DNA from: Escherichia coli
Lineage (GTDB): Bacteria > Pseudomonadota > Gammaproteobacteria > Enterobacterales > Enterobacteriaceae
Reading direction: 5' to 3' (one strand)
NCBI RefSeq assembly: GCF_041886205.1
Contig: NZ_CP169029.1
DNA: 64,000 bases
Below are positions 36,613 through 53,909 of this stretch, one piece after another. Under the pieces are notes generated by a model that did not search any database, was not told the origin of the DNA, and saw only the letters and a list, made by a program, of their open reading frames with translations. The position numbers were made by a program, and so were the translations under genes. Every line of letters begins with the position of its first letter. Position 1 is the stretch's first letter.

Positions 36613-37007
36613 GCCCAACAATGGGGGGACGGAAGCTGTAAAAGTAAAACAATCTGCGATCTCAGAGTTATTGTGTGATTTTTATGTGAGCAGAAGATAT
36701 TCATCAGAAACGATTATGTAAATCATTTTATTTTGCCGACTGCCTGATTGTCGAAAGAAAAGAATACGCCCGGGTTTCCTGAATAGATTGACTTTTTTAT
36801 CCAACCACACTTCAGCGCACTGCGTTTAAAAAATGCCTCATTCTTATGCGGAATATCATCATTTCATCATGATGTCTTTGATGAGCGGTGAACACAATAC
36901 ACTTGCGCTGTCTCTTCAGGATGAATCCCCTGGTCTGGTGCCTGTGGGCTGATGTTGCAGCAAAGCTAAGGTCGCTTAAACGCTACTCAGTATTCACTTT
37001 TCAGAGG

Positions 37008-40000
37008 ATGAAATTTATGAACAGGACCAGTCCCTATTATTTTCGCCGCTCAGTACTTTCCTTATTGATATCTGCCCTGATATATGCTCCGCCCGGGATG
37101 GCGGCCTTTACTACTAATGTTATTGGTGTGGTAAATGATGAGACTGTAGATGGCAACCAACGAGTAGATGAACGAGGTACAACAAATAACACTCATATTA
37201 TCAACCATGGCCAGCAGAGTGTTTATGGCGGAGTATCTAATGGAAGTATTATTGAATCGGGTGGATATCAAGATGTTGGAAGGAATAACAATTATATGGG
37301 GCAGTCTAATAATACAACCATTAACGGAGGAAGACAGACAATTCATGACGGGGGCATTTCCACCGGTACGATAATCGACAGTGGCAATCAGGACGTTTAT
37401 ACAGGTGGTATCAGCAATGGAACGACAATTAAGGGTGGTAATTCACACATAAGTGGGGGGACTGCGAATGGAACAATCATTGATGGTGGCAGCCAACGAG
37501 TAACAACGCAGGGGCATGTTGACAGTACAACGATAAATAAGTCTGGCTCTCAGGACATCACGCAAGGAAGTCTGGCGACGAACACAATCATAAATGGTGG
37601 ACGACAGTATGTTGAACAGAGCACAGTAGGAACAACCACCATTAAAAATGGCGGTGAGCAAAGAGTATATGAAAGCCATGCGCTGGACACGACGATTGAA
37701 GGTGGAACTCAGTCTCTGAATAATAAGTCAACGGCAAAAAATACTCAGATCTATTCTGGTGGTACGCAAATTGTTGATAACACCAGCACCTCGGATGTTA
37801 TTGAAGTTTATTCCGGTGGCGTGCTTGATGTTAGTGGTGGTACGGCAACAAATGTTACCCAGCACGATGGTGCAATTTTAAAAACAAACACTAACGGTAC
37901 GACGGTGAACGGTACGAATAGTGAAGGTGCATTCTCCATCCACAATCACGTGGCAGACAATGTGTTGCTGGAAAACGGTGGTCATTTAGACATAAACGCA
38001 TATGGTTCGGCAAACAAGACTATTATCAAAGATAAAGGAACAATGTCAGTTTTAACCAATGCTAAAGCTGATGCGACCCGAATAGATAACGGCGGGGTAA
38101 TGGATGTTGCCGGAAACGCGACCAATACCATAATTAATGGTGGCACACAGAATATTAATAATTATGGCATAGCCACGGGAACCAATATCAACAGCGGAAC
38201 GCAAAATATCAAGAGCGGCGGGAAAGCTGACACGACAATTATATCCTCCGGGAGCCGGCAGGTTGTTGAGAAAGATGGTACGGCAACTGGCAGCAATATT
38301 AGCGCCGGAGGCTCGCTGATTGTCTATACCGGCGGTATTGCACATGGGGTTAACCAGGAGACGGGCAGTGCTTTAGTTGCCAACACGGGTGCAGGGACTG
38401 ATATCGAAGGATACAACAAGCTCTCTCACTTCACTATTACCGGAGGGGAGGCTAATTATGTTGTGCTGGAAAATACCGGCGAACTGACGGTAGTGGCTAA
38501 AACCTCGGCGAAAAATACTACCATTGATACTGGCGGTAAGCTGATTGTCCAGAAGGAGGCTAAAACAGATAGCACCAGACTTAATAATGGCGGCGTTCTG
38601 GAGGTTCAGGACGGTGGTGAGGCTAAGCATGTTGAGCAACAATCCGGCGGCGCATTAATTGCTTCCACGACCTCCGGAACACTTATCGAAGGAACCAACA
38701 GTTATGGTGATGCTTTCTACATCAGGAATTCAGAAGCTAAAAATGTAGTGCTGGAAAACGCTGGCTCATTAACAGTCGTCACTGGTTCCCGGGCAGTTGA
38801 TACGATTATTAATGCCAATGGCAAAATGGATGTTTATGGAAAAGATGTTGGCACTGTACTTAATAGTGCTGGCACCCAAACAATATATGCCAGTGCCACT
38901 TCTGATAAAGCAAATATCAAAGGTGGCAAGCAAACGGTATATGGTTTAGCCACTGAAGCAAATATCGAAAGTGGTGAACAAATTGTTGATGGTGGGTCAA
39001 CAGAGAAAACACACATCAATGGTGGCACGCAAATCGTTCAGAATTATGGTAAGGCAATCAATACCGATATCGTCTCTGGCCTACAACAAATTATGGCAAA
39101 CGGGACAGCGGAAGGTTCCATTATTAATGGGGGTTCACAGGTAGTTAATGAGGGCGGTCTGGCTGAAAACTCGGTGCTTAATGACGGCGGCACACTCGAT
39201 GTGCGGGAGAAAGGCAGCGCAACGGGGATACAGCAGAGTAGCCAGGGCGCTTTGGTTGCAACCACCAGGGCGACGCGGGTCACAGGAACACGCGCGGATG
39301 GCGTCGCGTTCAGCATCGAGCAGGGTGCGGCGAACAATATCCTGCTGGCAAATGGCGGCGTGTTAACCGTGGAGTCAGACACCTCTTCTGACAAAACACA
39401 GGTCAATATGGGCGGACGGGAGATCGTCAAAACAAAAGCCACTGCGACAGGCACGACGCTCACCGGCGGTGAACAAATTGTCGAGGGTGTGGCGAATGAG
39501 ACAACAATTAACGACGGCGGAATACAAACAGTTTCAGCTAACGGAGAGGCAATAAAAACAAAGATCAATGAAGGCGGTACGCTGACAGTCAACGATAATG
39601 GCAAAGCGACAGATATCGTCCAGAACAGCGGTGCCGCTCTCCAGACGAGCACGGCTAACGGTATTGAAATCAGCGGTACTCACCAGTACGGTACTTTTTC
39701 CATTTCCGGCAATTTAGCGACCAATATGTTGCTGGAAAATGGCGGTAATTTATTGGTATTAGCAGGTACCGAAGCTCGCGACTCCACGGTTGGCAAGGGT
39801 GGGGCAATGCAAAACCTGGGTCAGGACTCCGCCACAAAGGTTAACTCTGGCGGGCAATATACCCTTGGGCGGTCAAAAGATGAGTTTCAGGCTCTGGCCC
39901 GGGCAGAAGATCTCCAGGTCGCTGGCGGTACGGCAATCGTCTACGCAGGTACGCTGGCGGATGCATCGGTCAGTGGCGCGACAGGAAGCCTGTCGTTAAT

Positions 40001-41597
40001 GACGCCACGGGATAATGTTACGCCAGTTAAACTCGAAGGGGCGGTCCGGATTACCGATAGCGCGACATTGACTCTGGGAAATGGCGTCGATACCACGCTT
40101 GCCGACCTGACGGCTGCCAGCCGGGGCAGTGTCTGGCTTAACAGCAATAATTCCTGTGCAGGTACCAGCAACTGCGAATATAGAGTAAACAGTTTGCTAC
40201 TCAACGACGGTGATGTTTATTTGTCAGCACAAACAGCAGCGCCTGCCACAACTAACGGTATCTACAATACGCTGACAACCAATGAACTTTCCGGTAGCGG
40301 TAATTTCTACCTGCATACCAACGTTGCAGGCTCCCGGGGCGATCAACTGGTCGTCAACAACAACGCCACTGGTAATTTTAAAATCTTTGTTCAGGATACC
40401 GGCGTCAGCCCACAGTCTGACGACGCGATGACGCTGGTGAAAACAGGGGGAGGGGATGCTTCGTTTACGCTGGGCAATACCGGCGGTTTCGTTGATCTTG
40501 GGACCTATGAGTATGTCCTGAAAAGTGACGGCAACAGCAACTGGAACCTGACCAATGATGTCAAACCCAACCCGGACCCCATCCCAAATCCAAAGCCAGA
40601 CCCAAAACCCGATCCAAAGCCAGACCCAAATCCAAAACCAGACCCTACTCCCGATCCAACGCCGACACCCGTTCCGGAGAAACGCATTACGCCTTCTACG
40701 GCAGCCGTACTCAATATGGCAGCAACATTACCGTTGGTATTTGATGCTGAGCTAAACAGTATTCGCGAGCGGTTGAACATAATGAAAGCGAGTCCACACA
40801 ACAATAATGTCTGGGGGGCGACGTATAACACCCGTAATAATGTCACCACCGATGCGGGTGCCGGGTTTGAGCAGACGCTGACCGGAATGACAGTGGGGAT
40901 CGACAGCCGTAATGATATTCCTGAAGGAATTACCACGCTAGGCGCTTTTATGGGCTATTCCCATTCACATATCGGTTTTGATCGCGGAGGACATGGCAGT
41001 GTGGGCAGTTATTCTCTGGGCGGCTATGCCAGTTGGGAACATGAAAGTGGTTTCTATCTGGACGGTGTCGTGAAGCTGAACCGTTTTAAAAGTAACGTAG
41101 CAGGTAAAATGAGCAGCGGTGGAGCCGCCAATGGCAGTTACCACAGCAACGGGCTGGGCGGTCACATTGAAACCGGGATGCGATTTACCGATGGTAACTG
41201 GAACCTGACGCCGTATGCATCGTTAACGGGGTTCACCGCTGATAACCCCGAATATCATTTATCCAATGGCATGGAATCGAAATCAGTCGATACCCGCAGT
41301 ATATATCGTGAACTGGGTGCAACGCTGAGTTACAACATGCGTCTGGGGAACGGTATGGAAGTTGAGCCGTGGCTGAAGGCGGCTGTGCGCAAAGAATTTG
41401 TCGATGATAACCGGGTGAAGGTGAATAATGACGGTAATTTCGTCAATGATTTGTCGGGCAGACGTGGAATATACCAGGCAGGTATTAAAGCCTCATTCAG
41501 TAGTACGTTAAGCGGGCATCTCGGGGTGGGGTATAGCCATGGTGCCGGTGTGGAATCACCGTGGAACGCGGTGGCTGGTGTGAACTGGTCGTTCTGA
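37008..41597 (+). CDS. ypjA: AIDA-I-type autotransporter adhesin, YpjA-like
   Basis: Signal peptide (MKFMNRTSPYYFRRSVLSLLISALIYAPPGMAAF), long repetitive GG-x-Q/T beta-helix passenger, Pro-rich linker, C-terminal beta-barrel ending ...AGVNWSF; start trimmed from ORF 36888. Confidence 0.85.
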   Translation: MKFMNRTSPYYFRRSVLSLLISALIYAPPGMAAFTTNVIGVVNDETVDGNQRVDERGTTNNTHIINHGQQSVYGGVSNGSIIESGGYQDVGRNNNYMGQSNNTTINGGRQTIHDGGISTGTIIDSGNQDVYTGGISNGTTIKGGNSHISGGTANGTIIDGGSQRVTTQGHVDSTTINKSGSQDITQGSLATNTIINGGRQYVEQSTVGTTTIKNGGEQRVYESHALDTTIEGGTQSLNNKSTAKNTQIYSGGTQIVDNTSTSDVIEVYSGGVLDVSGGTATNVTQHDGAILKTNTNGTTVNGTNSEGAFSIHNHVADNVLLENGGHLDINAYGSANKTIIKDKGTMSVLTNAKADATRIDNGGVMDVAGNATNTIINGGTQNINNYGIATGTNINSGTQNIKSGGKADTTIISSGSRQVVEKDGTATGSNISAGGSLIVYTGGIAHGVNQETGSALVANTGAGTDIEGYNKLSHFTITGGEANYVVLENTGELTVVAKTSAKNTTIDTGGKLIVQKEAKTDSTRLNNGGVLEVQDGGEAKHVEQQSGGALIASTTSGTLIEGTNSYGDAFYIRNSEAKNVVLENAGSLTVVTGSRAVDTIINANGKMDVYGKDVGTVLNSAGTQTIYASATSDKANIKGGKQTVYGLATEANIESGEQIVDGGSTEKTHINGGTQIVQNYGKAINTDIVSGLQQIMANGTAEGSIINGGSQVVNEGGLAENSVLNDGGTLDVREKGSATGIQQSSQGALVATTRATRVTGTRADGVAFSIEQGAANNILLANGGVLTVESDTSSDKTQVNMGGREIVKTKATATGTTLTGGEQIVEGVANETTINDGGIQTVSANGEAIKTKINEGGTLTVNDNGKATDIVQNSGAALQTSTANGIEISGTHQYGTFSISGNLATNMLLENGGNLLVLAGTEARDSTVGKGGAMQNLGQDSATKVNSGGQYTLGRSKDEFQALARAEDLQVAGGTAIVYAGTLADASVSGATGSLSLMTPRDNVTPVKLEGAVRITDSATLTLGNGVDTTLADLTAASRGSVWLNSNNSCAGTSNCEYRVNSLLLNDGDVYLSAQTAAPATTNGIYNTLTTNELSGSGNFYLHTNVAGSRGDQLVVNNNATGNFKIFVQDTGVSPQSDDAMTLVKTGGGDASFTLGNTGGFVDLGTYEYVLKSDGNSNWNLTNDVKPNPDPIPNPKPDPKPDPKPDPNPKPDPTPDPTPTPVPEKRITPSTAAVLNMAATLPLVFDAELNSIRERLNIMKASPHNNNVWGATYNTRNNVTTDAGAGFEQTLTGMTVGIDSRNDIPEGITTLGAFMGYSHSHIGFDRGGHGSVGSYSLGGYASWEHESGFYLDGVVKLNRFKSNVAGKMSSGGAANGSYHSNGLGGHIETGMRFTDGNWNLTPYASLTGFTADNPEYHLSNGMESKSVDTRSIYRELGATLSYNMRLGNGMEVEPWLKAAVRKEFVDDNRVKVNNDGNFVNDLSGRRGIYQAGIKASFSSTLSGHLGVGYSHGAGVESPWNAVAGVNWSF
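40561..40672 (+). repeat. Tandem short repeats encoding the (P-D/N/K-P) linker inside ypjA
   Basis: cccaaatccaaagccagacccaaaacccgatccaaagccagacccaaatccaaaaccagaccc, encoding PNPDPIPNPKPDPKPDPKPDPNPKPDPTPDPTPTP. Confidence 0.7.
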
Positions 41598-41640: not shown

Positions 41641-41825
41641 GGAGCCGCGGCTCTTTTGCGTATCCTGTTTTGTCTCCTCACCGTCTGGTCGGTGTCCTGC
41701 TGAGGCTGCTAACTTCCTGTTTTTGTTGGTGTTGTCCTTACACCGTCCAATCATGATTGGGCTGGCGGAGTCTGAATAACATTTGCAACATAATGTTTTT
41801 ATTGTTTATTTTCCAATTCAACTTT

Positions 41826-41854
41826 CATTGGTATACCTAAGCGTATACCAATGG
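41826..41854. repeat. Palindromic GGTATAC-containing repeat at the left end of the P4-like element
   Basis: cattggtatacctaagcgtataccaatgg; close copy of cgtatacctaaacgtataccaat at 53200-53222. Confidence 0.5.
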
Positions 41855-41932
41855 CGATTTGTTGCAATGATTCCTGTGGTTAAGCGAACTTGTTGTTGAA
41901 TAGCTCACATCAAGAAAAAAACTTTTTTTACG

Positions 41933-42034
41933 GAAAACTGTTCACACTGTTCACTCGCCATTATTTGTCTTTAATTTCAATGTGATATACGGTGAATAGT
42001 CCGTGAACAGTGAACACTTTACTGTTCACTTTCC
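41933..42034. promoter_or_regulatory. Cluster of TGTTCAC/GTGAACA octamer iterons downstream of the primase gene, P4 ori-like
   Basis: ctgttcacactgttcac ... ggtgaatagtccgtgaacagtgaacactttactgttcac; resembles P4 type I iterons bound by alpha. Confidence 0.5.
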
Positions 42035-42079: not shown

Positions 42080-44413
42080 TTATGTCGCGGTGGTTTCGTC
42101 GCACCGGGGCAGCCAGTCGGCGTTGCTTTCCTCCCTGAGCGCAAGGTTCGTCTGCATCCCCTGATTTGTTCGCCGCCTGGCGTAATTCAGCCCGTACTCT
42201 TTCAGCATCGATGACAGCCCTTTGCCGAACATGGTCAGGCTGAGGGTGTTCTTGTAGCCGTGCGCCTCCATGTAAACCAGATAGGCGTGATACAGGTACA
42301 GGCGCGGCTGTCGCGGGATGATATTCGCATTCCCCATGTACATACCGTCAGGCTCGGGCAGCGCCTCCAGATAGCCACAAAAATCGAATGTCGGGTCAGC
42401 GTCGCGCTTGATGCTGAGTGCCTCGTCGGAGTTCTGCTGCGACTGGAGCAGTGTGCGCGCGGTCATCGGGTCGCTGAACGTCTGCATAAGCTGACGCACG
42501 ATGACGGCCAGCTCGCGGGCAATTTTATCTTTCAGCTTCGGGTCACGCTCCTCCGGGGCAATCTGTTCCGGGAAGTGCATTATCACCCGGCGACGCGACA
42601 CGCCGCCGCTGCGGTCGGTGAAGCGCATCGGATTGTTGTTTACGGCCAGTATCACCGCCGGAATATGGGTGGAGTACGCATCGCGGTATTTCGGGTCAAC
42701 CGAGACCGCATCCCCGCCGGTGATGGCCTTGAGTCCTGCCCCGTCACCGCTCCATTTCTCCTGGTCAGGCAGACGTATCAGCGAGAAGCCAATCAGCGCC
42801 GCGCGCTCGCGGGGGGATTCCAGCGTTTCGATAGTCGCTGACGTGGCGTTATCTTCCCCGGCGAGCATGGTCGCTATTTCGGCCAGAATACTTTTCCCGC
42901 TGCCACCGGGACCGGTCACTTCGAGGAAGAGCTGCCAGTCGTAGCGGTTCGCCAGCACCATAAACAGCGCGGCGAGTATCACGTCACGTTTATCGGCACG
43001 CGAACCGGCGGCGCGGTCGAGCCAGCGCCAGAAATTCGGCGCGTGCGTCTCCAGCGTTTCCCCCTCCACCGGCGGGGTGAAATCCACGTCGCACAGGGTG
43101 CGCAGCCAGTGCGTTTTGCTGTGCGGGCTGAATATACCGGTACTGGTATCAAGCACGCCGTTGCGAAAGCCAATCAGCCGCCGTGGCGGGGCATCCTGCT
43201 GCGGAATAATCAGTTTCAGGGTGTCCACCACCGAGGCAATTTTCCCCGACGAAAACGGGGCGCGCAGACGCTGGAACAGCCCGGCCACGTCGCGCGCAAA
43301 GTCTGACGGCGGAATGATTTTCCATATACCGGCTTCATAGCGGGACAGGAGCTGCCCGTTCGCATCCACCGCCAGCGCTTCGCCGTAATGCTCATGCACC
43401 CGCATGGCTTTCTCACTGGTGCTCATGGCGGTAAATTCCGCCTCGCTCATGGTAGAGAAAGGGCTTTCAGCCGGTGGCCGGATGGCGTCATACATGGCTT
43501 TACGCGTGGCCTCCCCACCGTGCTGTGTATACGCATCATTCCAGTCACCGAACACCGGCGGCAGGGCGACCACGCCCTCACAGGACTCTGCGGCCGCAGA
43601 CGCTTTGGTCTGGCCGTCGCCGTTAAGGTCACGGTCGGCGGCAATGACAATCCGGCAGGCCGGGTATTTGTGACGGGCAAGGCTCGCCAGAGAAAGGAGG
43701 TTCACCGACGACAGCGCCACCATGACGGTTTCGCCGGTCAGGTGATGCACGGTGAGCGCGGTCGCGTAGCCCTCCGCTATCCACAGCCGTTTTCCCGCCT
43801 CTTTTTTCCCGTCGAGAATATGACATGTCCCTTTTACCTGCCCCCCTTTCAGGGTGCGCTTGAGACCGTCCGCGTTAATGAGCTGGACGTTAACCAGTGC
43901 GCCGCTATCGTCATACAGCGGGACAACCACATCCCCGGCACGGTACGTCACACCGCCGGTTTTGTGCATGGCCGTCAGTACCTGACATTCCCGGCCGGGA
44001 AAGCCCTTGCGGGTGAGGTAGGCGTTGCCGGTGGCCGGTTGGGTTTTCTCCATCAGTCTGGCGGCCAGCGCGGCCGCCGCTTTGCGGTCGGCCTCCGTTT
44101 CAGCGTCTGCGGCCGCAGTCACCGCCGGGGATACCGGAGGCAGGTTGCCGGTCACGGCGTTCACCTTCCCGGCCGCCTCTGACGGGGTCACGCCGAACAC
44201 TTTCTCAACCAGTTTCAGACCGTCCCCCGCGCCGCACTGGTTACAGAACCACGTCCCGCGTCCCTCCTTATCGTCAAAGCGAAAGCGGTCGGAGCCGCCA
44301 CACACCGGACAGGCCTGATGACGGTTTTTGATGACCGTTACCCCCAGCGCCGGGAGAATGCGCGGCCAGTGGCCGCACGCCTGTTTCACGGTGTCCGTTA
44401 CGTTCATTTTCAT
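42080..44413 (-). CDS. P4 alpha-type primase-helicase
   Basis: 777 aa; N-terminal zinc-binding primase region CPVCGGSDRFRFDDKEGRGTWFCNQCG; Walker A-like GPGGSGKS. Confidence 0.85.
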   Translation of the reverse strand: MKMNVTDTVKQACGHWPRILPALGVTVIKNRHQACPVCGGSDRFRFDDKEGRGTWFCNQCGAGDGLKLVEKVFGVTPSEAAGKVNAVTGNLPPVSPAVTAAADAETEADRKAAAALAARLMEKTQPATGNAYLTRKGFPGRECQVLTAMHKTGGVTYRAGDVVVPLYDDSGALVNVQLINADGLKRTLKGGQVKGTCHILDGKKEAGKRLWIAEGYATALTVHHLTGETVMVALSSVNLLSLASLARHKYPACRIVIAADRDLNGDGQTKASAAAESCEGVVALPPVFGDWNDAYTQHGGEATRKAMYDAIRPPAESPFSTMSEAEFTAMSTSEKAMRVHEHYGEALAVDANGQLLSRYEAGIWKIIPPSDFARDVAGLFQRLRAPFSSGKIASVVDTLKLIIPQQDAPPRRLIGFRNGVLDTSTGIFSPHSKTHWLRTLCDVDFTPPVEGETLETHAPNFWRWLDRAAGSRADKRDVILAALFMVLANRYDWQLFLEVTGPGGSGKSILAEIATMLAGEDNATSATIETLESPRERAALIGFSLIRLPDQEKWSGDGAGLKAITGGDAVSVDPKYRDAYSTHIPAVILAVNNNPMRFTDRSGGVSRRRVIMHFPEQIAPEERDPKLKDKIARELAVIVRQLMQTFSDPMTARTLLQSQQNSDEALSIKRDADPTFDFCGYLEALPEPDGMYMGNANIIPRQPRLYLYHAYLVYMEAHGYKNTLSLTMFGKGLSSMLKEYGLNYARRRTNQGMQTNLALREESNADWLPRCDETTAT

Positions 44414-46944: not shown

Positions 46945-47050
46945 CAGTGAACAGTAGTGAACAGTTGGTGAACACTTTTCTCTCAACTGTTCACTCTTTA
47001 ATTTATTGTTTTATTTATATTTTTATACTGAGTGAACAGTAGTGAATAGT
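46945..47050. promoter_or_regulatory. Second TGAACAGT iteron cluster, P4 crr-like
   Basis: cagtgaacagtagtgaacagttggtgaacac ... caactgttcac ... gagtgaacagtagtgaatagt, about 5 kb from the ori-like cluster. Confidence 0.5.
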
Positions 47051-47218
47051 TATATGTAAAAAAACAAATAGAGTGAGGGGTTTTCCTGCGACCTTTCTCT
47101 GGCCAGCCGGGTTTTTAAGTCCTGTTTGTGCCATGTCTGCGACAACGGCAATGAATCGAGTTGTTGTCTGAGGGACGGCAGAATGGCGTCAGGTTGAAAA
47201 CACAGAGAGAACCCGACG

Positions 47219-48022
47219 ATGAAACCAGATTTGTTTACCGCAGTAATGAAAACCATCGGCAGCACGCAGGATGAGAACATCCGCACGGCCATTGACAGCG
47301 CACTGGATACCCTTAACGAGAAAGCAAACCAGAACGCAGAGGCCACGATAAATAATGCGCTTGAGGCATTCAGCAAGGCCAAATCCGCGCACACGGAAAA
47401 TATGCTGAAACTGAATGATATTGATGCGGCCATTACCCGCAGTGAGAAAGAGCGTCAGAACGCCCTGAATGAAAGTGCCGAAGCGGAACAGAACTGGCGT
47501 ACCCGTTTTCGCGAACTGCGCGGCATGATGACCCCGGAACTGAAAGCCGAACACAGTCAGCGAGTGGCCGGTCGGGAGCTGGCGGAGGAATTCACCGCCC
47601 TGATTGATGAGCTCAACGATGATAAAGCCAGTACCATGCTGGCCGCCTGTACATCAGGAGATAAGTACGTCGGCACGCATTTTACGGTGTTCTCTGCCTA
47701 CTCCCGGAATGAGTGGGCGACCGTGATGAAAGACATCCCTCCCTCACTGGTGCGCGCATTTGCGTTACGTCTGCGTGAACTCGAAATGAAAGGAGAAGAA
47801 CACCCTCACAACGTTCTCATTCAGGAACTGGGGGAGAATGTACTGGCGCAAAGCAGGTACTACACATTCAACATGGCGCAGGAGCCGGTAATTTCAAAAA
47901 TTGGGCTTCACCGTCCGGCACTCACCGGCGTGGATATGAAACTCTATAAAAGCCCGGTTCTCAGAATGGCGCGGGCTAAAGAGCTGGCACAGAAGAAAAA
48001 ATCGCGGGGGGTTAAGCCATGA
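47219..48022 (+). CDS. Possible Sid-like capsid size determination protein
   Basis: 267-aa alpha-helical protein immediately upstream of the Delta and Psu homologs, in the P4 sid-delta-psu order. Confidence 0.4.
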   Translation: MKPDLFTAVMKTIGSTQDENIRTAIDSALDTLNEKANQNAEATINNALEAFSKAKSAHTENMLKLNDIDAAITRSEKERQNALNESAEAEQNWRTRFRELRGMMTPELKAEHSQRVAGRELAEEFTALIDELNDDKASTMLAACTSGDKYVGTHFTVFSAYSRNEWATVMKDIPPSLVRAFALRLRELEMKGEEHPHNVLIQELGENVLAQSRYYTFNMAQEPVISKIGLHRPALTGVDMKLYKSPVLRMARAKELAQKKKSRGVKP

Positions 48023-48261
48023 TGCGCTGTCCGTACTGCAAACAGGCTGCCCATGTCCGTACCAGCCGTTACCTGTCGGATAACGTCAAACAGAGCTACC
48101 TCCAGTGCGTGAATGTCTTTTGCTCCGCAACCTTTCGCACCACCGAGTCTATCGACGAGGTAATACGGCCACCGGCAGAAGAAAAGCCCGAACCGCCGCA
48201 GACAGTACCAGAAACACCGCCCCGAATTCTGGACTGCGCCCGGTCATCGCTGCGCCACTGA
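48019..48261 (+). CDS. Ogr/Delta-family zinc-finger late transcription activator
   Basis: CPYCKQAAHVRTSRYLSDNVKQSYLQCVNVFCSATF matches the Ogr/Delta C-x2-C...C-x4-C pattern. Confidence 0.8.
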   Translation: MMRCPYCKQAAHVRTSRYLSDNVKQSYLQCVNVFCSATFRTTESIDEVIRPPAEEKPEPPQTVPETPPRILDCARSSLRH

Positions 48262-48277
48262 TTCAGGAGAAAAGACA

Positions 48278-48853
48278 ATGGCACGAGCACTACTGGAACA
48301 GGCCTTTGAAACCTGTCAGAAGAATAAATCGGACTGGGTGAGCAGCAAGTCAGCACTGGCGCGGGCTGAAATGGCGCTGAAAGAGCTGGAGCTGACCTGC
48401 ACCCGTTATGAACCGGAGGCCGCACAGGCGCTGCGGGATGATATTGACCTGAAAAAATGGGCGGTAAATCAGTCGGCCGGGCAGTACATCCGGTCACATG
48501 AGGCCGTGCAGCGTATCAGTATCCGGCGTCAGCTCCACGCCTTTATGCAGGTAAGCGGCGACGCGCTGGCCGCCGCACTGGCACCGGAATTAATGCATCT
48601 CTGCGAACAACCTGACATTGTCAGAGAACGGGCTCTCGACCGGGCGGCCGCCAGTGTTCGCGAAGCGCTGTCCGTTTATGTAACCCGCGGAGGAAATATT
48701 GATTACGCAGAGGATGATCGCGACATTCTGACAACCATCGGTTTCCGGCCTGACAGAGCATCGAGAGACGACAACCGGGCAAAATATACGCCTGAACAGA
48801 GTCAGATTTTCATGCGCCGACAGGCCGCGCAGACCCGCAAAAAATCCGCATAA
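48278..48853 (+). CDS. Psu-like polarity suppression protein
   Basis: 191 aa; remembered Psu-like motifs (KKWAVNQSAGQYIRSHEAVQ, AAALAPELM, DILTTIGFRPD); position after delta. Confidence 0.6.
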   Translation: MARALLEQAFETCQKNKSDWVSSKSALARAEMALKELELTCTRYEPEAAQALRDDIDLKKWAVNQSAGQYIRSHEAVQRISIRRQLHAFMQVSGDALAAALAPELMHLCEQPDIVRERALDRAAASVREALSVYVTRGGNIDYAEDDRDILTTIGFRPDRASRDDNRAKYTPEQSQIFMRRQAAQTRKKSA

Positions 48854-49113
48854 AACGCCCCGAAAATACCCGTCTTTTTAATAAAAATAGCCATGCATGC
48901 CTACGCTGCATGGCTTTGCATGCAAAAACCTGAATTTTCCACACCCCGCCGCACCAGCACTGGCGCGGCCTGAGTCCCTTCATGCGCCTGCATTAAAAGT
49001 GCCCCACGAAGCGGGCAGGCGTGGCGGGGAGAGCATTGCGCGCCAAGCGATATATAATTAATTAATGAAGAAGGATAGAATTAACCATATAGCCATAAAA
49101 AAGGATGCGGGTG

Positions 49114-50685
49114 ATGAAGGCGAGTGATATGCAGCACTTATGTAATATAGCCAGAGAGCTTGTTTCTGATGGCAAGTTTGAAAAGGCGTATGAGTTCACG
49201 TTGCAGATTTATAAATCCCTTGACGAAAATATCTTTGGGGATAATTACTATATACTTCTTTATAATATGGCTGCGAATTTTGTTGATATAGGAGGAATGC
49301 AACCGAATAAAGAGGCTTCTCTGCTAGGCTATAACTTAATGAATGAGCACTTTGACTCTTTTTCTAAAATTATGGATGAATCTACGCTCTATTATAACCT
49401 AGCAAACGCAAAGTCAAACTTGGTTGAAAAAGGCAGTGTTTTTAAACAAACGTTTACAACAATTGAGGATATGGTGGATGTAAAAAATTTATACTGGAAG
49501 GCATTTAAATTACTCGGTGATGATAATACTATATATAGCAAAGAACTGAAGGTCAATTTAGCAAACTCACTCAAGCAACAGTTTAGAGTTGTAGAGTCTA
49601 TTTCATATTATGATGATGTTATTTCCTCGGGGGAAGATATACCGCAAGCATGGATTAACAGGTCTGAAGCCTTAATGCTATTGCTGCAACTCTCTGGTTC
49701 TCATACTATAAAGCATATAAGAGAGATTAGACTTGGATATATGAAAGCAATTGAATCAACAGAGATGCCACCGCCATGGAAACCACACTTTCAATCACGT
49801 GCTGAAAAACTCACGGAAGATATAATCGAAATGTCGGGAAAACCATTTTTTGAAAAAGAAGATGAGCTTGATGAAAAACAGACGCTAGAAGAATATAGCA
49901 AACTTAATAATTATCAAAAATTCGTTTTAGATAACCACTTTGTTCTTTCTGAGCATGGGGTGTATTGTCCTTGCGTAGTTGGGGCTAAAGATAACCTAAC
50001 AATATTACCAACACATAATGATGTTTCTGGTGATTTTATTATTCCCATGGAAATGGTTTTGAATAGGCTAAAGTCTGAATATGCTTTGGCAAGGCGCTCG
50101 TTATTCGAGTATGAGTACATGGAGGAAGTTGATGATGTGGCCTGTTATTCAGAGTTGTATAACGATGAAGTTTTAAATGTTGGTGTTGAGAAGATAAGAA
50201 ATGCATTTCGTATATGTTTTGGTGTGTTAGATAAAATAGCTATTGCAATATGTGAGTTATACGATGTTTATCCAGCCAATAAAATAGTGTACTTTGAAAA
50301 TTTTTGGCAATTAAACCAAAATGGGCGAAGGGATAAGTTTGAAGAAATAAAAACTCCAGCTTTACTGGCTTTATATAGTCTAGCTACTGACCTAAATGAT
50401 AGAAAGAATGGTGAATTATCCTTTTATAAGGATTGGAGAAATGATTTGGAACATAATATAGTGATCGTTCATAAAGATTGCGAGCCTTTAGATATATATA
50501 ATTCCTACGGTTACATGAAGAATATTAGGTTGATATCGGAGTCTGATTTTACTAGACATTTTAAAGTGTTATTGCAAATAGTACGCTCAGCAATTTTTCT
50601 TTTTACCTTTATGGTAAGAGAAGAGGGGGGTAAAAGTAACAAGGATTCATTTTTGATATCAAACTCACTAGATTGGAAAATATGA
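49114..50685 (+). CDS. Hotspot cargo: TPR-like N-terminus plus C-terminal HEPN-like domain, candidate abortive-infection protein
   Basis: AT-rich 523-aa ORF; TPR-like helical repeats; R-x4-H motif in WRNDLEHNIV; start trimmed from ORF 49105 for RBS spacing. Confidence 0.55.
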   Translation: MKASDMQHLCNIARELVSDGKFEKAYEFTLQIYKSLDENIFGDNYYILLYNMAANFVDIGGMQPNKEASLLGYNLMNEHFDSFSKIMDESTLYYNLANAKSNLVEKGSVFKQTFTTIEDMVDVKNLYWKAFKLLGDDNTIYSKELKVNLANSLKQQFRVVESISYYDDVISSGEDIPQAWINRSEALMLLLQLSGSHTIKHIREIRLGYMKAIESTEMPPPWKPHFQSRAEKLTEDIIEMSGKPFFEKEDELDEKQTLEEYSKLNNYQKFVLDNHFVLSEHGVYCPCVVGAKDNLTILPTHNDVSGDFIIPMEMVLNRLKSEYALARRSLFEYEYMEEVDDVACYSELYNDEVLNVGVEKIRNAFRICFGVLDKIAIAICELYDVYPANKIVYFENFWQLNQNGRRDKFEEIKTPALLALYSLATDLNDRKNGELSFYKDWRNDLEHNIVIVHKDCEPLDIYNSYGYMKNIRLISESDFTRHFKVLLQIVRSAIFLFTFMVREEGGKSNKDSFLISNSLDWKI

Positions 50686-50814
50686 AAACATTACGTTGCA
50701 AGTATATCTTGTATTCGTTCAACTTTGACCTGACACACCTCTGGCACAAAGCCCCAATCTCATAGGCGGTTCTATGCCAGGGGCTGAAAGTCTGTCTCTG
50801 GTAACATACACTTA

Positions 50815-51801
50815 TTATGTTATATTGAGGAAATCTGGGATATTAGCTGGTTCAAGGTCAAAAATATATTTAATGATTCCGGCTTTTAGGTTCTCCTCAA
50901 TTCCTTTCCTGAAATCTAGAATACTTGAGATTGTTGCATCATGTTGTAAATGATGTCGCCAGTGAACATCTTTTTCTCGACTATGAAAAGATAACAATCG
51001 GGTTAGAGCCATATGTGCGAACATTCCTGATTGTTCATCGATTGTATAATGGGCAACCACGTGGGAATCAGAATATGATTCTTTCGTAGAAAGATCCCAA
51101 GAATGAAATAATTGCTGAGCAATTGGTGATAGATCCCTTATTTGTTCATTTCTTCCGTTAGTGAAGTAAACATCATCTATGACGGTATGCCAGTTTTCTT
51201 GTGTCCCTTCATCTGTTTCAATGGTTTCAATAATATTTTCTTTCTTGAAACTTATATGAACACCTGAATTAACTTGTGGAGTGTAGGTGAAGTCACCTAA
51301 AACTTTACTCATTAAGCTATTACGCATTGCATCATTGAAATTAAGATTGAAATTTGTTTTTGCCTTTGTAAATAAATCTAGATCTACCAGGCTCCAAATT
51401 CCATGTCTTCTCCAGGCAATTAAAACGGGCAGCCCTAATAATTGGCCGTAAGCTCTTAATCTGGACACGTAATCTGGACGAAAAGACAAAACATTTCCCA
51501 TGTAAGATTTAACTTCAATCAAAACAGTAGTCTTGCCTGCGCCACGCACATTAAAATTTGCTAGTAAATCTGGAACCTGAAAAGTCTTGTTAGAAGTAGT
51601 TGGATACTGCTGTTGATCCAATTTATGGACTAGGTTGCATTGACCTAGCCAACCACAGATAATCGAAAACTCGTCTTCTAACGGGAGGCCAATATTAAGT
51701 CTATTTACACGTTCAGCGATAGCCTTAGCGTCAGCCTCCCAACCCAGTTGCTCTAGAGATTCATGTATAAGTCTCTCTAAATCTGTCGGCTTATCTTTCA
51801 A
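50815..51801 (-). CDS. Hotspot cargo: putative PD-(D/E)xK-fold nuclease-like protein (328 aa)
   Basis: AT-rich ORF convergent with the HEPN-like gene; N-terminal motif FQVPDLL...VLIEVKS. Confidence 0.55.
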   Translation of the reverse strand: MKDKPTDLERLIHESLEQLGWEADAKAIAERVNRLNIGLPLEDEFSIICGWLGQCNLVHKLDQQQYPTTSNKTFQVPDLLANFNVRGAGKTTVLIEVKSYMGNVLSFRPDYVSRLRAYGQLLGLPVLIAWRRHGIWSLVDLDLFTKAKTNFNLNFNDAMRNSLMSKVLGDFTYTPQVNSGVHISFKKENIIETIETDEGTQENWHTVIDDVYFTNGRNEQIRDLSPIAQQLFHSWDLSTKESYSDSHVVAHYTIDEQSGMFAHMALTRLLSFHSREKDVHWRHHLQHDATISSILDFRKGIEENLKAGIIKYIFDLEPANIPDFLNIT

Positions 51802-51960
51802 GGTAGCTCCCTATAGGTTTAGTTCGAACTCAATAAGTTATATGTCATTAACATATTACAAAGTTATGCCATTATCGCTTAAAGCCGATCATCATGTAAG
51901 AATACATTATATCCGTGGCAACGGTTAGTGCTAATTCACAGATATACTGAGCAAAAATTT

Positions 51961-53148
51961 TTAATGATTTACTTTATCTCCCCACCAATCCATCAACTCA
52001 ACTCTTTGAAGTAAATAAGTTGAACGGTTGTAAGCTTTTCGAACTTCATTTTTGTCTGAGTGTGCTAATGCTGCTTCAATAACATCAGAATTAAATCCGG
52101 CTTCATTGAGTGCAGTACTTGCGATGGACCGTAACCCGTGAGCAACTAATTTCCCACCATAACCAATACGCTTAAGTGCGGCATTAGCAGTCTGACTATT
52201 CATTGGTTGCTTAGGGTTATTTCTGCTGGGAAAAACATGTTCACGGTGAGCGCTGATTGGTTTCATCACTTCCAGAATATCTAACGCCTGAGGAGATAGT
52301 GGGACTATGTGCTCACGCTTAGCTTTCATCCGTTCGGCAGGAATTGTCCAGAGCTTTGCATCAAGATCGATCTCTGCCCACCGGGTACTGGAAGCCTCAG
52401 AAGGGCGCACAAGGGTCAGGAGTTGCCATTCGATTAGACAGCGAGTCGGAACAGACAGATTTGACATGACTAAAGAACGCATCAGCTTCGGCAATTCTTC
52501 TGGCCGCAACGTCGGCATGTTTTGCTTTTTGGGCTTCTCAAAGGCCATGCCAACACCGGATGCTGGATTGGCATCAATCAGACCAGTGTTTACGGCATAA
52601 ATCATGATTTCGTTAATGCGCTGCACCAGTCGACGTACAGTCTCAAGCGCCCCACGTGCTTTTATTGGCTCAAGGGCTTCAACCAAAGTTCGGGCTTTGA
52701 TTTGCTGAACGGGGATCTCACCGATGGCAGGGAATACATCTTTCTCCAGTGAACGCCAAATGTCTTTTGCGTAATCAGGGGTAACGCTTTTGCTTTTGAG
52801 ATGGAACCAGTTAGCGGCGACCGTTGAAAAAATACTGTCCAGAGCGATTTGCTGCTGTTCCTCTGCAACTTCGGCCTGAATTTGCGGGTCAATTCCGTTG
52901 GCTAACAAGGCAAGGTAATCCGCTCTTAACCCTCGGGCGTCAGCAAGTGAGAGGGCGGGGAAAGCACCTAGCCCCATCATTGTCCGCTGTTTTGTCGCCG
53001 GACGTTGATAACGGAAACGCCAGAGCTTTTTCCCGCTGGTTTTCACTATCAGGAAAAGGCCATCGCCATCATGCAGCGTTAGATCCTTCTCTAACGCTTT
53101 AGCGCGCAGAACTTCGGTGTTGGTCAGGGGGCGTGTTGTCCGTGCCAC
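51961..53148 (-). CDS. intA: P4-type tyrosine integrase, IntA (CP4-57)-like
   Basis: MARTTRPLTNTEVLRAKALEKDLTLHDGDGLFLIVKTSGKKLWRFRYQRP... resembles the IntA N-terminus; located immediately 3' of ssrA. Confidence 0.88.
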   Translation of the reverse strand: MARTTRPLTNTEVLRAKALEKDLTLHDGDGLFLIVKTSGKKLWRFRYQRPATKQRTMMGLGAFPALSLADARGLRADYLALLANGIDPQIQAEVAEEQQQIALDSIFSTVAANWFHLKSKSVTPDYAKDIWRSLEKDVFPAIGEIPVQQIKARTLVEALEPIKARGALETVRRLVQRINEIMIYAVNTGLIDANPASGVGMAFEKPKKQNMPTLRPEELPKLMRSLVMSNLSVPTRCLIEWQLLTLVRPSEASSTRWAEIDLDAKLWTIPAERMKAKREHIVPLSPQALDILEVMKPISAHREHVFPSRNNPKQPMNSQTANAALKRIGYGGKLVAHGLRSIASTALNEAGFNSDVIEAALAHSDKNEVRKAYNRSTYLLQRVELMDWWGDKVNH

Positions 53149-53166
53149 TGTGGCCGCTCCTTCATG

Positions 53167-53226
53167 AATTGGTATACGCTTTTAGGTATACATCCTACCG
53201 TATACCTAAACGTATACCAATAATCA
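53167..53226. repeat. GGTATAC-rich repeats between the integrase start and ssrA, probable integrase binding or attachment region
   Basis: aattggtatacgcttttaggtatacatcctaccgtatacctaaacgtataccaataatc; matches the repeat at 41826-41854. Confidence 0.5.
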
Positions 53227-53332
53227 CCGGATTTAGCCGGATGTTCTCGGACAACTACAGACACAAAAAAGCCCGCAGAGCTTGTGCTATACGGGCTTTC
53301 TGTACTTCACCGGACGTATCCGGATCATCATT

Positions 53333-53695
53333 TGGTGGAGCTGGCGGGAGTTGAACCCGCGTCCGAAATTCCTACGTCCTCGGTACTACATGCTTAGTCA
53401 GTCTTTACATTCGCTTGCCAGCTGCGGACGGACACGCCACTAACAAACTAGCCTGATTAAGTTTTAACGCTTCAACCCCAGGCAGGGCTTCCACGCGATC
53501 TCTTTTGGGTTTGACCTCTCTTGATCCCCGTCCTAAGAGCGGAGGCTAGGGAGAGAGGGCTCTAAGCAGGTTATTAAGCTGCTAAAGCGTAGTTTTCGTC
53601 GTTTGCGACTATTTTTTGCGGCTTTTTACGAGGCCAACCGCCCCTCGGCATGCACCTTGGGTTTCGCAAATCCCGTCGAATCCAGAATCAGCCCC
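53333..53695 (-). ncRNA. ssrA: tmRNA (SsrA)
   Basis: Reverse complement reads GGGGCTGATTCTGGATTCGACGGGATTTGCGAAACCC ... GGTTCAACTCCCGCCAGCTCCACCA, matching E. coli ssrA over its length. Confidence 0.95.
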
Positions 53696-53909
53696 AATGT
53701 GTAACGATAAGTATACCAGATTTATGAGCGCCATGACCAGCCTCAATGGCGTTATCGTTAAAGATTTAGCACCCATGTAGCCTGATTTTTATTCGATTAA
53801 GCAATGGGATGGCAACATTTTCGTCGGATGTGATAGCCAATAAGATGTTCATTCGCGCCGCCGGAGAGGGAGGCGCGGTGAGGAACTGGTCAATAATTGG
53901 AGTGCAGGT

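Follow-up and report, generated by a model that had tools for sequence, protein, structure and literature searches.

The stretch of Escherichia coli DNA analyzed here (64,000 nucleotides (nt) of contig NZ_CP169029.1, RefSeq assembly GCF_041886205.1; hereafter the window) carries a P4-like satellite at ssrA, the gene for transfer-messenger RNA (tmRNA), with an extent of about 41.76–53.35 kb. Between the psu-like gene and the integrase gene of this satellite lie two intact, AT-rich, convergent genes, here named A and B, whose coordinates, lengths and motifs had all been given correctly in an original prediction made from the letters of the sequence. Gene A encodes a protein of 523 amino acids (aa) with tetratricopeptide repeats (TPR) and a HEPN domain, a predicted ribonuclease (RNase), and gene B encodes a predicted nuclease of 328 aa. 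Each is probably an anti-phage defense consisting of one gene, and the sequence evidence says that they are two independent modules stacked in one slot rather than one system. The features of both genes are:

49114–50685, plus strand: gene A, 523-aa TPR and LA2681-family HEPN protein, predicted RNase effector with a repeat sensor
49114–49938, plus strand: TPR solenoid of A (residues 1–275), the proposed sensor or regulatory domain
50041–50625, plus strand: HEPN_LA2681 domain of A (residues 310–504; Pfam PF18733)
50437–50454, plus strand: the catalytic motif R-x4-H in A (R442 N443 D L E446 H447)
50815–51801, minus strand: gene B, predicted PD-(D/E)xK nuclease of 328 aa, Hjc-like, whose C-terminal domain is specific to its family
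51292–51684, minus strand: nuclease domain of B (residues 40–170), with D78 at 51568–51570 and E96-x-K98 at 51508–51516
50818–51291, minus strand: C-terminal beta-rich domain of B (residues 171–328)
51906–51934, minus strand: sigma-70-like promoter upstream of B (TTAGCA, 17 nt, TATAAT), the best site of the region (10/12 consensus), called by consensus match only

The open reading frame (ORF) of gene A extends from 49105 to 50685 on the plus strand, and its start is most likely the ATG at 49114, because an AAGGA sequence lies 8 nt upstream of it and homologues are likewise 523 aa long. The protein matches PF18733 with E = 3.1e-35 over model positions 8–204 of 204. With its R-x4-6-H motif and this significant match to a HEPN family model it belongs to the HEPN superfamily, and the TPR repeats N-terminal to the HEPN domain are those of the LA2681 family. 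In an alignment of 47 full-length homologues (42–90% identity), the residues R442, N443, E446, and H447 are invariant; they lie in the WRNDLEHN stretch (R442–H447) in which a HEPN motif had been proposed. An AlphaFold2 model built on the homologue alignment (mean local confidence, pLDDT, 87; predicted template-modeling score, pTM, 0.90) shows a helical solenoid over residues 1–275, followed by a helical domain with the R-x4-H motif, and thus bears out the predicted combination of TPR and HEPN. The LA2681 family has no solved structure in the PDB. Searches of the PDB with the single sequences of A and B gave nothing useful, and searches with family profiles returned only TPR proteins for A and only Hjc for B.

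The two parts of A differ in conservation, with a mean pairwise identity in the family of 43% for the TPR part and 66% for the HEPN domain. This much greater divergence of the TPR part fits a sensor-plus-effector layout. The linker between them (residues 276–309, positions 49939–50040) is the best-conserved stretch of the protein, at 70% mean pairwise identity, and contains the invariant residues S279, H281, Y284, C285, C287, and D293; it could be a metal site or part of an activation switch.

Gene B starts with a TTG codon, which is kept in the related locus L001. The invariant residues P77-D78 and E96-V-K98 are located on consecutive core strands, and correspond to the VPDLL...LIEVKS arrangement from which a PD-(D/E)xK nuclease had been predicted. 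As in PD-(D/E)xK nucleases, the fold is alpha-beta-beta-beta-alpha-beta and the D...(D/E)-x-K residues are placed on core strands two and three, and a further invariant triad, E42-D43-E44, sits on the helix preceding the core strands. Against Hjc profiles B scores 13.5 bits in Pfam (E = 0.073) and 20.3 bits in NCBIfam (E = 3.7e-4, with a family cut-off of 70 bits), and 25 of 47 B relatives reach the Pfam Hjc model at E <= 1e-3. B is fold-related to Hjc but is not an Hjc equivalog, since it scores under the thresholds of the family (PF01870 / NF040854) and carries extra domains, whereas Hjc is a small single-domain protein (~120–140 aa).

The C-terminal domain of B is predicted well (pLDDT mostly >88) and has no Pfam family. 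A fold search explained the nuclease core alone and gave no convincing structural match for this domain. When it was compared by phmmer with 1.84 billion representative sequences, 66 matches were obtained, none longer than 358 aa; in the full-length matches (about 320–360 aa) the domain stands at the same position, and the shorter ones look like fragments. Fusions of the domain to other partners were sought in the same search, which returned only B's own architecture. With only 66 entries and none of another architecture, the domain is private to the small family of B.

Both genes are under purifying selection. In the comparison with L001 (84% nucleotide identity), where dS is ~0.5, the ratio of non-synonymous to synonymous substitution rates (dN/dS) amounts to 0.099 in A and 0.098 in B, and it is low in every domain of the two proteins. 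Neither gene is a chance ORF, as hundreds of full-length homologues exist for each. Among 50,697 phage genomes no match to either protein was found.

The cargo and its borders comprise the following features:

48278–48853, plus strand: psu-like gene of the satellite (ORF), the left framework gene of the hotspot
49011–49044: cos-like site, the left edge of the exchangeable cargo (30/34 bases equal to the P4 cos-region string)
49044–52015: swapped AT-rich cargo module with genes A and B (blastn against L075; GC 0.32–0.39)
50699–51950: B module, a discrete 1.25-kb indel relative to A-only satellites (blastn against L084)
50722–50802: GC-rich hairpin between A and B (RNA fold −36.4 kcal/mol, z = −2.2 against shuffles)
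51961–53148, minus strand: P4-type integrase gene (ORF), the right framework gene of the hotspot
53333–53695, minus strand: ssrA (tmRNA), the integration site (ARAGORN; Rfam RF00023, 292.8 bits)

The framework genes are those of P4-like elements. The equivalents of the psu-like gene in the related loci L001 and L076–L087 have the Pfam domain Psu, and the one in L075 is annotated as 'phage polarity suppression protein'; the integrase equivalents have Arm-DNA-bind_3, Phage_int_M, and Phage_integrase. In L001, which has an equal layout, Psu, Ogr_Delta, and Phage_integrase were found. On the chromosomal side, the flank from smpB to recN matches E. coli genomes with 100% identity. Over positions 49000–52000 the GC content is 0.32–0.39 (0.34 and 0.37 for the two cargo genes), compared to 0.54–0.64 in the satellite core.

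That the cargo occupies the P4-satellite hotspot, as originally proposed, is evident from a sister satellite (L075, E. coli BKQWHE), likewise inserted at ssrA and sharing the backbone, in which the slot holds a SIR2 gene and an ATPase gene (ATP-binding protein) instead. By blastn, homology between the window and L075 is limited to 46947–49043 and 52016–53700. The cos-like site, GCGGGCAGGCGTGGCGGGGAGAGCATTGCGCGCC, which was recognized with a P4 cos-region string taken from fragments cloned by Rousset et al., sits exactly at the left junction of this exchange, where homology ends at 49043. A and B therefore show two marks of P4 hotspot cargo, a place between psu/cos and integrase and differing gene sets in homologous elements. 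The cargo has no near match among 5,426 complete E. coli genomes, and Rfam and repeat scans of it revealed no RNA element and no meaningful repeat.

Genes A and B are separated by 129 nt. The hairpin between them is likely a bidirectional terminator, judging from the modeled fold; a consensus terminator scan did not call it. Because the genes are convergent, they do not form one operon.

Whether A and B act together or as two single-gene systems had been left open, and their independent distribution points to two separate modules. In a one-genome-per-species scan, which yielded 47 B loci from Alpha-, Beta-, and Gammaproteobacteria and beyond, A was within 6 kb of B at none of them. No neighbor of B is conserved across 51 non-redundant loci, save in one Pseudomonas subclade with flanking genes of its own. 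Homologues of A occur without B in Cellvibrio, in Citrobacter, in metagenomic integrase islands, and on six IMG/VR contigs, and adjacency of A and B is confined to this satellite lineage (L001/L002 and L076–L083). Four P4-like satellites from Salmonella (L084–L087) contain psu, A (at 91% aa identity), and int, and no B; there the distance from the stop codon of A to the end of the integrase gene is about 40 nt. Homology of the window to L084 (blastn) covers only 48005–50698 and 51951–53200 and ends 13 nt past the stop codon of A. As homology to the A-only satellite breaks at 50698 and resumes at 51951, B, together with its promoter region, is a clean indel of 1.25 kb.

The cassette of both genes is widespread. 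At least eight additional assemblies of Enterobacteriaceae contain it with 99–100% aa identity, and others with ~90%; the protein clusters extend over E. coli, Klebsiella, Salmonella, Citrobacter, and Enterobacter, on hundreds of contigs. One satellite with both genes (L082, CP056647.1, Citrobacter; 99.6–99.7% aa identity) lies beside ABC-transporter/AprE-type genes and not at smpB-ssrA, so that the element uses at least two chromosomal sites. The flanking genes of the A-only satellites L084 and L087 are equal to those of L082.

In P2 hotspots and defense islands, too, each family is found by itself. Homologues of B are present between the portal gene and gpA, in the hotspot of P2-like prophages (L003, L026), adjoin LmuB, Avs2, and an OLD/GajA-like ATPase, and in Pseudomonas aeruginosa lie in an integrase island that also contains a Dam methylase and an AAA_15/21 ATPase. 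Homologues of A are found in the P2 hotspot beside DinI (L021–L023) and inside an AbiEii/Fic/HigBA/ArdA island. HEPN_LA2681 is listed, without testing, among genes of E. coli P2 hotspots (Rousset 2022, Table S5), and a 335-aa E. coli LA2681 protein is among the predicted defense genes of DefensePredictor, though absent from its supplementary list of DS numbers.

Two groups of relatives have neighborhoods of their own. In three Citrobacter and IMG/VR loci (L020, L015, and L016) the A homologue lies 12 nt downstream of an ORF of 719–767 aa. The 767-aa ORF of L020 corresponds to the C-terminal half of the NCBIfam entry 'NACHT domain-containing antiphage protein EruA' (E = 1.8e-155), and just upstream of it lies an ORF that resembles, by its sequence, an insertion sequence (IS) transposase; the arrangement suggests a disrupted NLR-type defense gene beside A. 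A literature search for the names EruA and HyoA gave nothing relevant. In a distant B subclade from Pseudomonas spp. (L062, L065, and L067; 38–40% identity) the nuclease gene is preceded by a gene of ~550 aa, whose end lies 14 nt upstream, and in two of the loci (L062 and L067) it is also followed by a gene of ~590 aa, whose start lies about 30 nt downstream, so this subclade may have a multigene system around the nuclease.

The remainder of the satellite contains these genes:

42080–44413, minus strand: alpha primase gene (ORF)
47219–48022: sid-like gene
48019–48261: delta gene

No long direct repeats that could represent attL and attR were found at a seed length of 12, and short core-like and arm-like att matches were noticed by eye. 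An arm-site-like repeat, GGTATACCTAA(A/G)CGTATACCAAT, is located near both satellite ends (41838–41862 and 53200–53224), and a short copy of the 3′ end of ssrA (GCTGGCGGAGT) lies near 41762 (about 41762–41774). Because of these repeats at both ends and the ssrA copy, the element is suggested to span roughly 41.76–53.35 kb. Two clusters with five TGTTCAC/GTGAACA motifs each (41939–42029 and 46947–47038) appear similar to the repeats of P4 ori and crr to which the alpha protein binds. An ORF of 1569 aa (36888–41597) abuts the left end of the satellite; its Gly/Thr/Asn-rich passenger-like repeats, its Pro-rich linker, and a beta-barrel-like region at the C terminus give it the appearance of an AIDA/Ag43-type autotransporter. 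A second ORF of 1569 aa, beside an A homologue in L024, was considered as a relative of it and rejected as a coincidence of length, as the two have no DNA similarity.

In our view A most likely acts in abortive infection, as an RNase fitted with a TPR sensor, and B is most likely a solitary nuclease directed at phage DNA. The reading as a whole, two independent single-gene modules with their own directions of transcription in one slot, is given a probability of roughly 60%. The fast-evolving TPR solenoid of A would keep the HEPN RNase in check, and binding of the solenoid to a protein made by the phage, or to a host factor altered by infection, would relieve the inhibition. HEPN RNases usually act as pairs. 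Paired HEPN domains of A would then cut transfer, ribosomal, or messenger RNA, and the cleavage would stop translation and abort the infection. In B, the Hjc-like core would cut phage DNA, and the private C-terminal domain would direct or gate the cleavage; likely targets would be branched intermediates of replication or recombination, or modified DNA.

The position of the genes raises the prior for such a role. The psu-integrase slot was experimentally shown to hold antiviral systems (PMC9122126), and protection was found for six of eight unknown and eight of eleven partial P4-hotspot loci (bioRxiv 10.64898/2026.02.27.708500). A defense role for uncharacterized P4-hotspot cargo thus has a high prior and is now the expected outcome (PMC9122126; bioRxiv 10.64898/2026.02.27.708500).

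Several points weigh against this interpretation. In Avs/NLR-type proteins a nucleoside triphosphatase (NTPase) switch usually couples TPR sensors to effectors, and A has none. A consensus scan detected no promoter-like site directly upstream of A. The association of B with defense islands is not universal, as some of its homologues, for example that of Acinetobacter L006, have ordinary chromosomal surroundings. Up to E = 1, neither protein matches a component of the 5,027 models of PADLOC-DB v2.0.0, a check that the original prediction had proposed. In the literature searched we found no experimental work on A or B, and LA2681 is mentioned there only by a computational survey of 2013. Finally, a 'HEPN-TPR' cargo gene of the same hotspot (pFR83) is among the 'additional tested systems' of Rousset 2022 and not among the validated ones.

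A more far-reaching form of the same idea is possible, and we put it forward tentatively. A would be a minimal pattern-recognition RNase, whose TPR part directly binds a conserved phage protein without NTPase or second messenger and in which the invariant H281, C285, and C287 of the linker belong to the switch; the C-terminal domain of B would be an undescribed reader of phage DNA structure or modification; and the natural satellites with A only or with both genes would illustrate how hotspots layer immunity by stacking single-gene modules.

Among the other explanations, the one that fares best, although we regard it as unlikely, is that the genes serve the satellite itself, either as addiction or stabilization toxins or by manipulating or interfering with the helper P2-like phage or competing mobile elements. 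HEPN proteins are frequent in toxin–antitoxin and addiction modules (PMC3710099), both families are found on mobile elements (P2/P4 hotspots, integrase islands, and some plasmids), and Hjc-like nucleases process branched DNA, an activity that could aid recombination or packaging. Neither in the window nor in the examined A loci does a conserved antitoxin-like partner, such as a minimal nucleotidyltransferase (MNT) or a small ORF, adjoin A. The arrangement of a HEPN-MNT or type II toxin–antitoxin pair is likewise missing, as A has no co-oriented conserved neighbor and B is convergent to it. The neighbors of both families are mostly defense genes, the slot itself is one in which antiviral systems have been demonstrated, and the lack of relatives among the phage genomes makes a core role in the phage or satellite life cycle unlikely.

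It is more doubtful still that A and B form one cooperative system, in which B senses phage DNA and licenses the RNase of A, or in which the two are a toxin and its regulator. Many assemblies of Enterobacteriaceae do keep the pair, at 99–100% and ~90% aa identity and with two integration sites, and the Aernus system likewise pairs a PD-(D/E)xK Hjc-like protein with an MtlR-like protein, MtlR being probably HEPN-related. Yet the two genes converge, a separate promoter-like site precedes B, A is missing from all 47 B loci and B from every independent A locus, A-only satellites exist in the same lineage, and no partner is conserved with either family; moreover, Aernus 5A has DUF4365 and AbiGii, and Pfam finds neither in B. 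That both genes are neutral or decaying passengers of hotspot recombination, without current function, is scarcely credible: turnover in hotspots is fast and many genes there have no assigned function, but neither ORF is shortened, every catalytic residue is kept, near-identical copies exist on hundreds of contigs from several genera, and dN/dS of ~0.10 at dS ~0.5 in every domain nearly refutes it.

If two independent defenses are indeed encoded, two single-gene systems, both common in clinical Enterobacteriaceae, would be added to the catalogue, and the LA2681 HEPN family, a prediction since 2013, would obtain its first function. Satellites with A alone and with both genes exist in nature, and offer a direct comparison on whether stacked modules are additive. 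The current picture of P4 hotspots is unchanged, and the finding fits that picture.

With respect to known systems, neither protein had been recognized as a named defense system in the original prediction. This holds in so far as no named system includes them (PADLOC-DB v2, NCBIfam of June 2026); it does not hold for A at the level of family, since A already belongs to the LA2681 HEPN family and NCBI labels its exact sequence as an LA2681 HEPN protein. NCBIfam (June 2026) and PHROGs gave no named defense family, with a weak Hjc-type match for B and spurious ones for A. The LA2681 family was described computationally in 2013 as TPR-fused (PMC3710099, Anantharaman et al., 2013), and A is a full-length member of it (PF18733), with a match over the whole model and the R-x4-H motif kept. 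Its description is computational alone, with no substrate, trigger, structure, or phage phenotype in the literature searched. The present analysis records LA2681 in the cargo of P4 hotspots, both by itself and in a stack with B.

Single-protein HEPN defenses are carried on mobile elements and in defense islands (PMC3710099; PMC13092281). Like A, the proteins AbiD/F/J/U2/V, ApeA, PrrC/RloC, and the CBS-HEPN protein DS-11 combine a regulatory or sensor domain and an R-x4-H HEPN domain in one polypeptide. They have no detectable sequence relation to A (PADLOC-DB v2), and the sensor of A is a TPR solenoid of ~275 residues in place of an ATPase, CBS, or AbiJ-type N-terminal domain. The pFR83 'HEPN-TPR' cargo of Rousset et al. 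(E. coli ATCC 8739) occupies the same hotspot and, by its name, likewise unites both domain types within one gene. Identity with A was considered and rejected, as the sequence is unrelated (best BLASTP E = 0.099); the domain order, too, is opposite, judging by the name.

Compared to archaeal Hjc (PF01870; PDB 2wcw, 1hh1, and 1gef), B has 2.5 times the length, to which ~40 additional residues at the N terminus and the private C-terminal domain of 158 residues contribute. Hjc is archaeal, whereas B is bacterial and located on mobile elements, which makes a housekeeping resolvase role unlikely. In plan B resembles solitary PD-(D/E)xK defense proteins and Type II/IV restriction endonucleases, which likewise consist of a single nuclease with an extra non-catalytic domain and are found in defense islands and hotspots; several B homologues are annotated 'restriction endonuclease' by NCBI, and DefensePredictor validated 13 PD-(D/E)xK systems. 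Unlike Type II enzymes, B lacks a methyltransferase partner, both in this cargo and at the majority of its loci, and is therefore not a classical restriction-modification enzyme. The cargo contains no methyltransferase gene, none is a conserved neighbor across the 51 B loci, and the one found near a B homologue is the Dam-type enzyme of the P. aeruginosa island. The only Hjc-domain protein in the DefensePredictor tables, WP_000378754.1, was examined as a possible equivalent of B and rejected, being 461 aa long with a different layout.

Aernus, a validated two-gene P4 cargo, combines a PD-(D/E)xK protein and an all-helical MtlR-like protein; the top Foldseek match of its nuclease is a Holliday junction resolving enzyme, and this nuclease occurs alone too, its colocalization being described as 'unsure' (bioRxiv 10.64898/2026.02.27.708500). 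We set Aernus apart from A and B by domain signatures, and rejected their identity, as DUF4365, AbiGii, and MtlR are absent by Pfam from A, B, and the 47 B relatives. Seen beside these systems, A and B would be new members of well-known kinds of defense genes, in the expected place.

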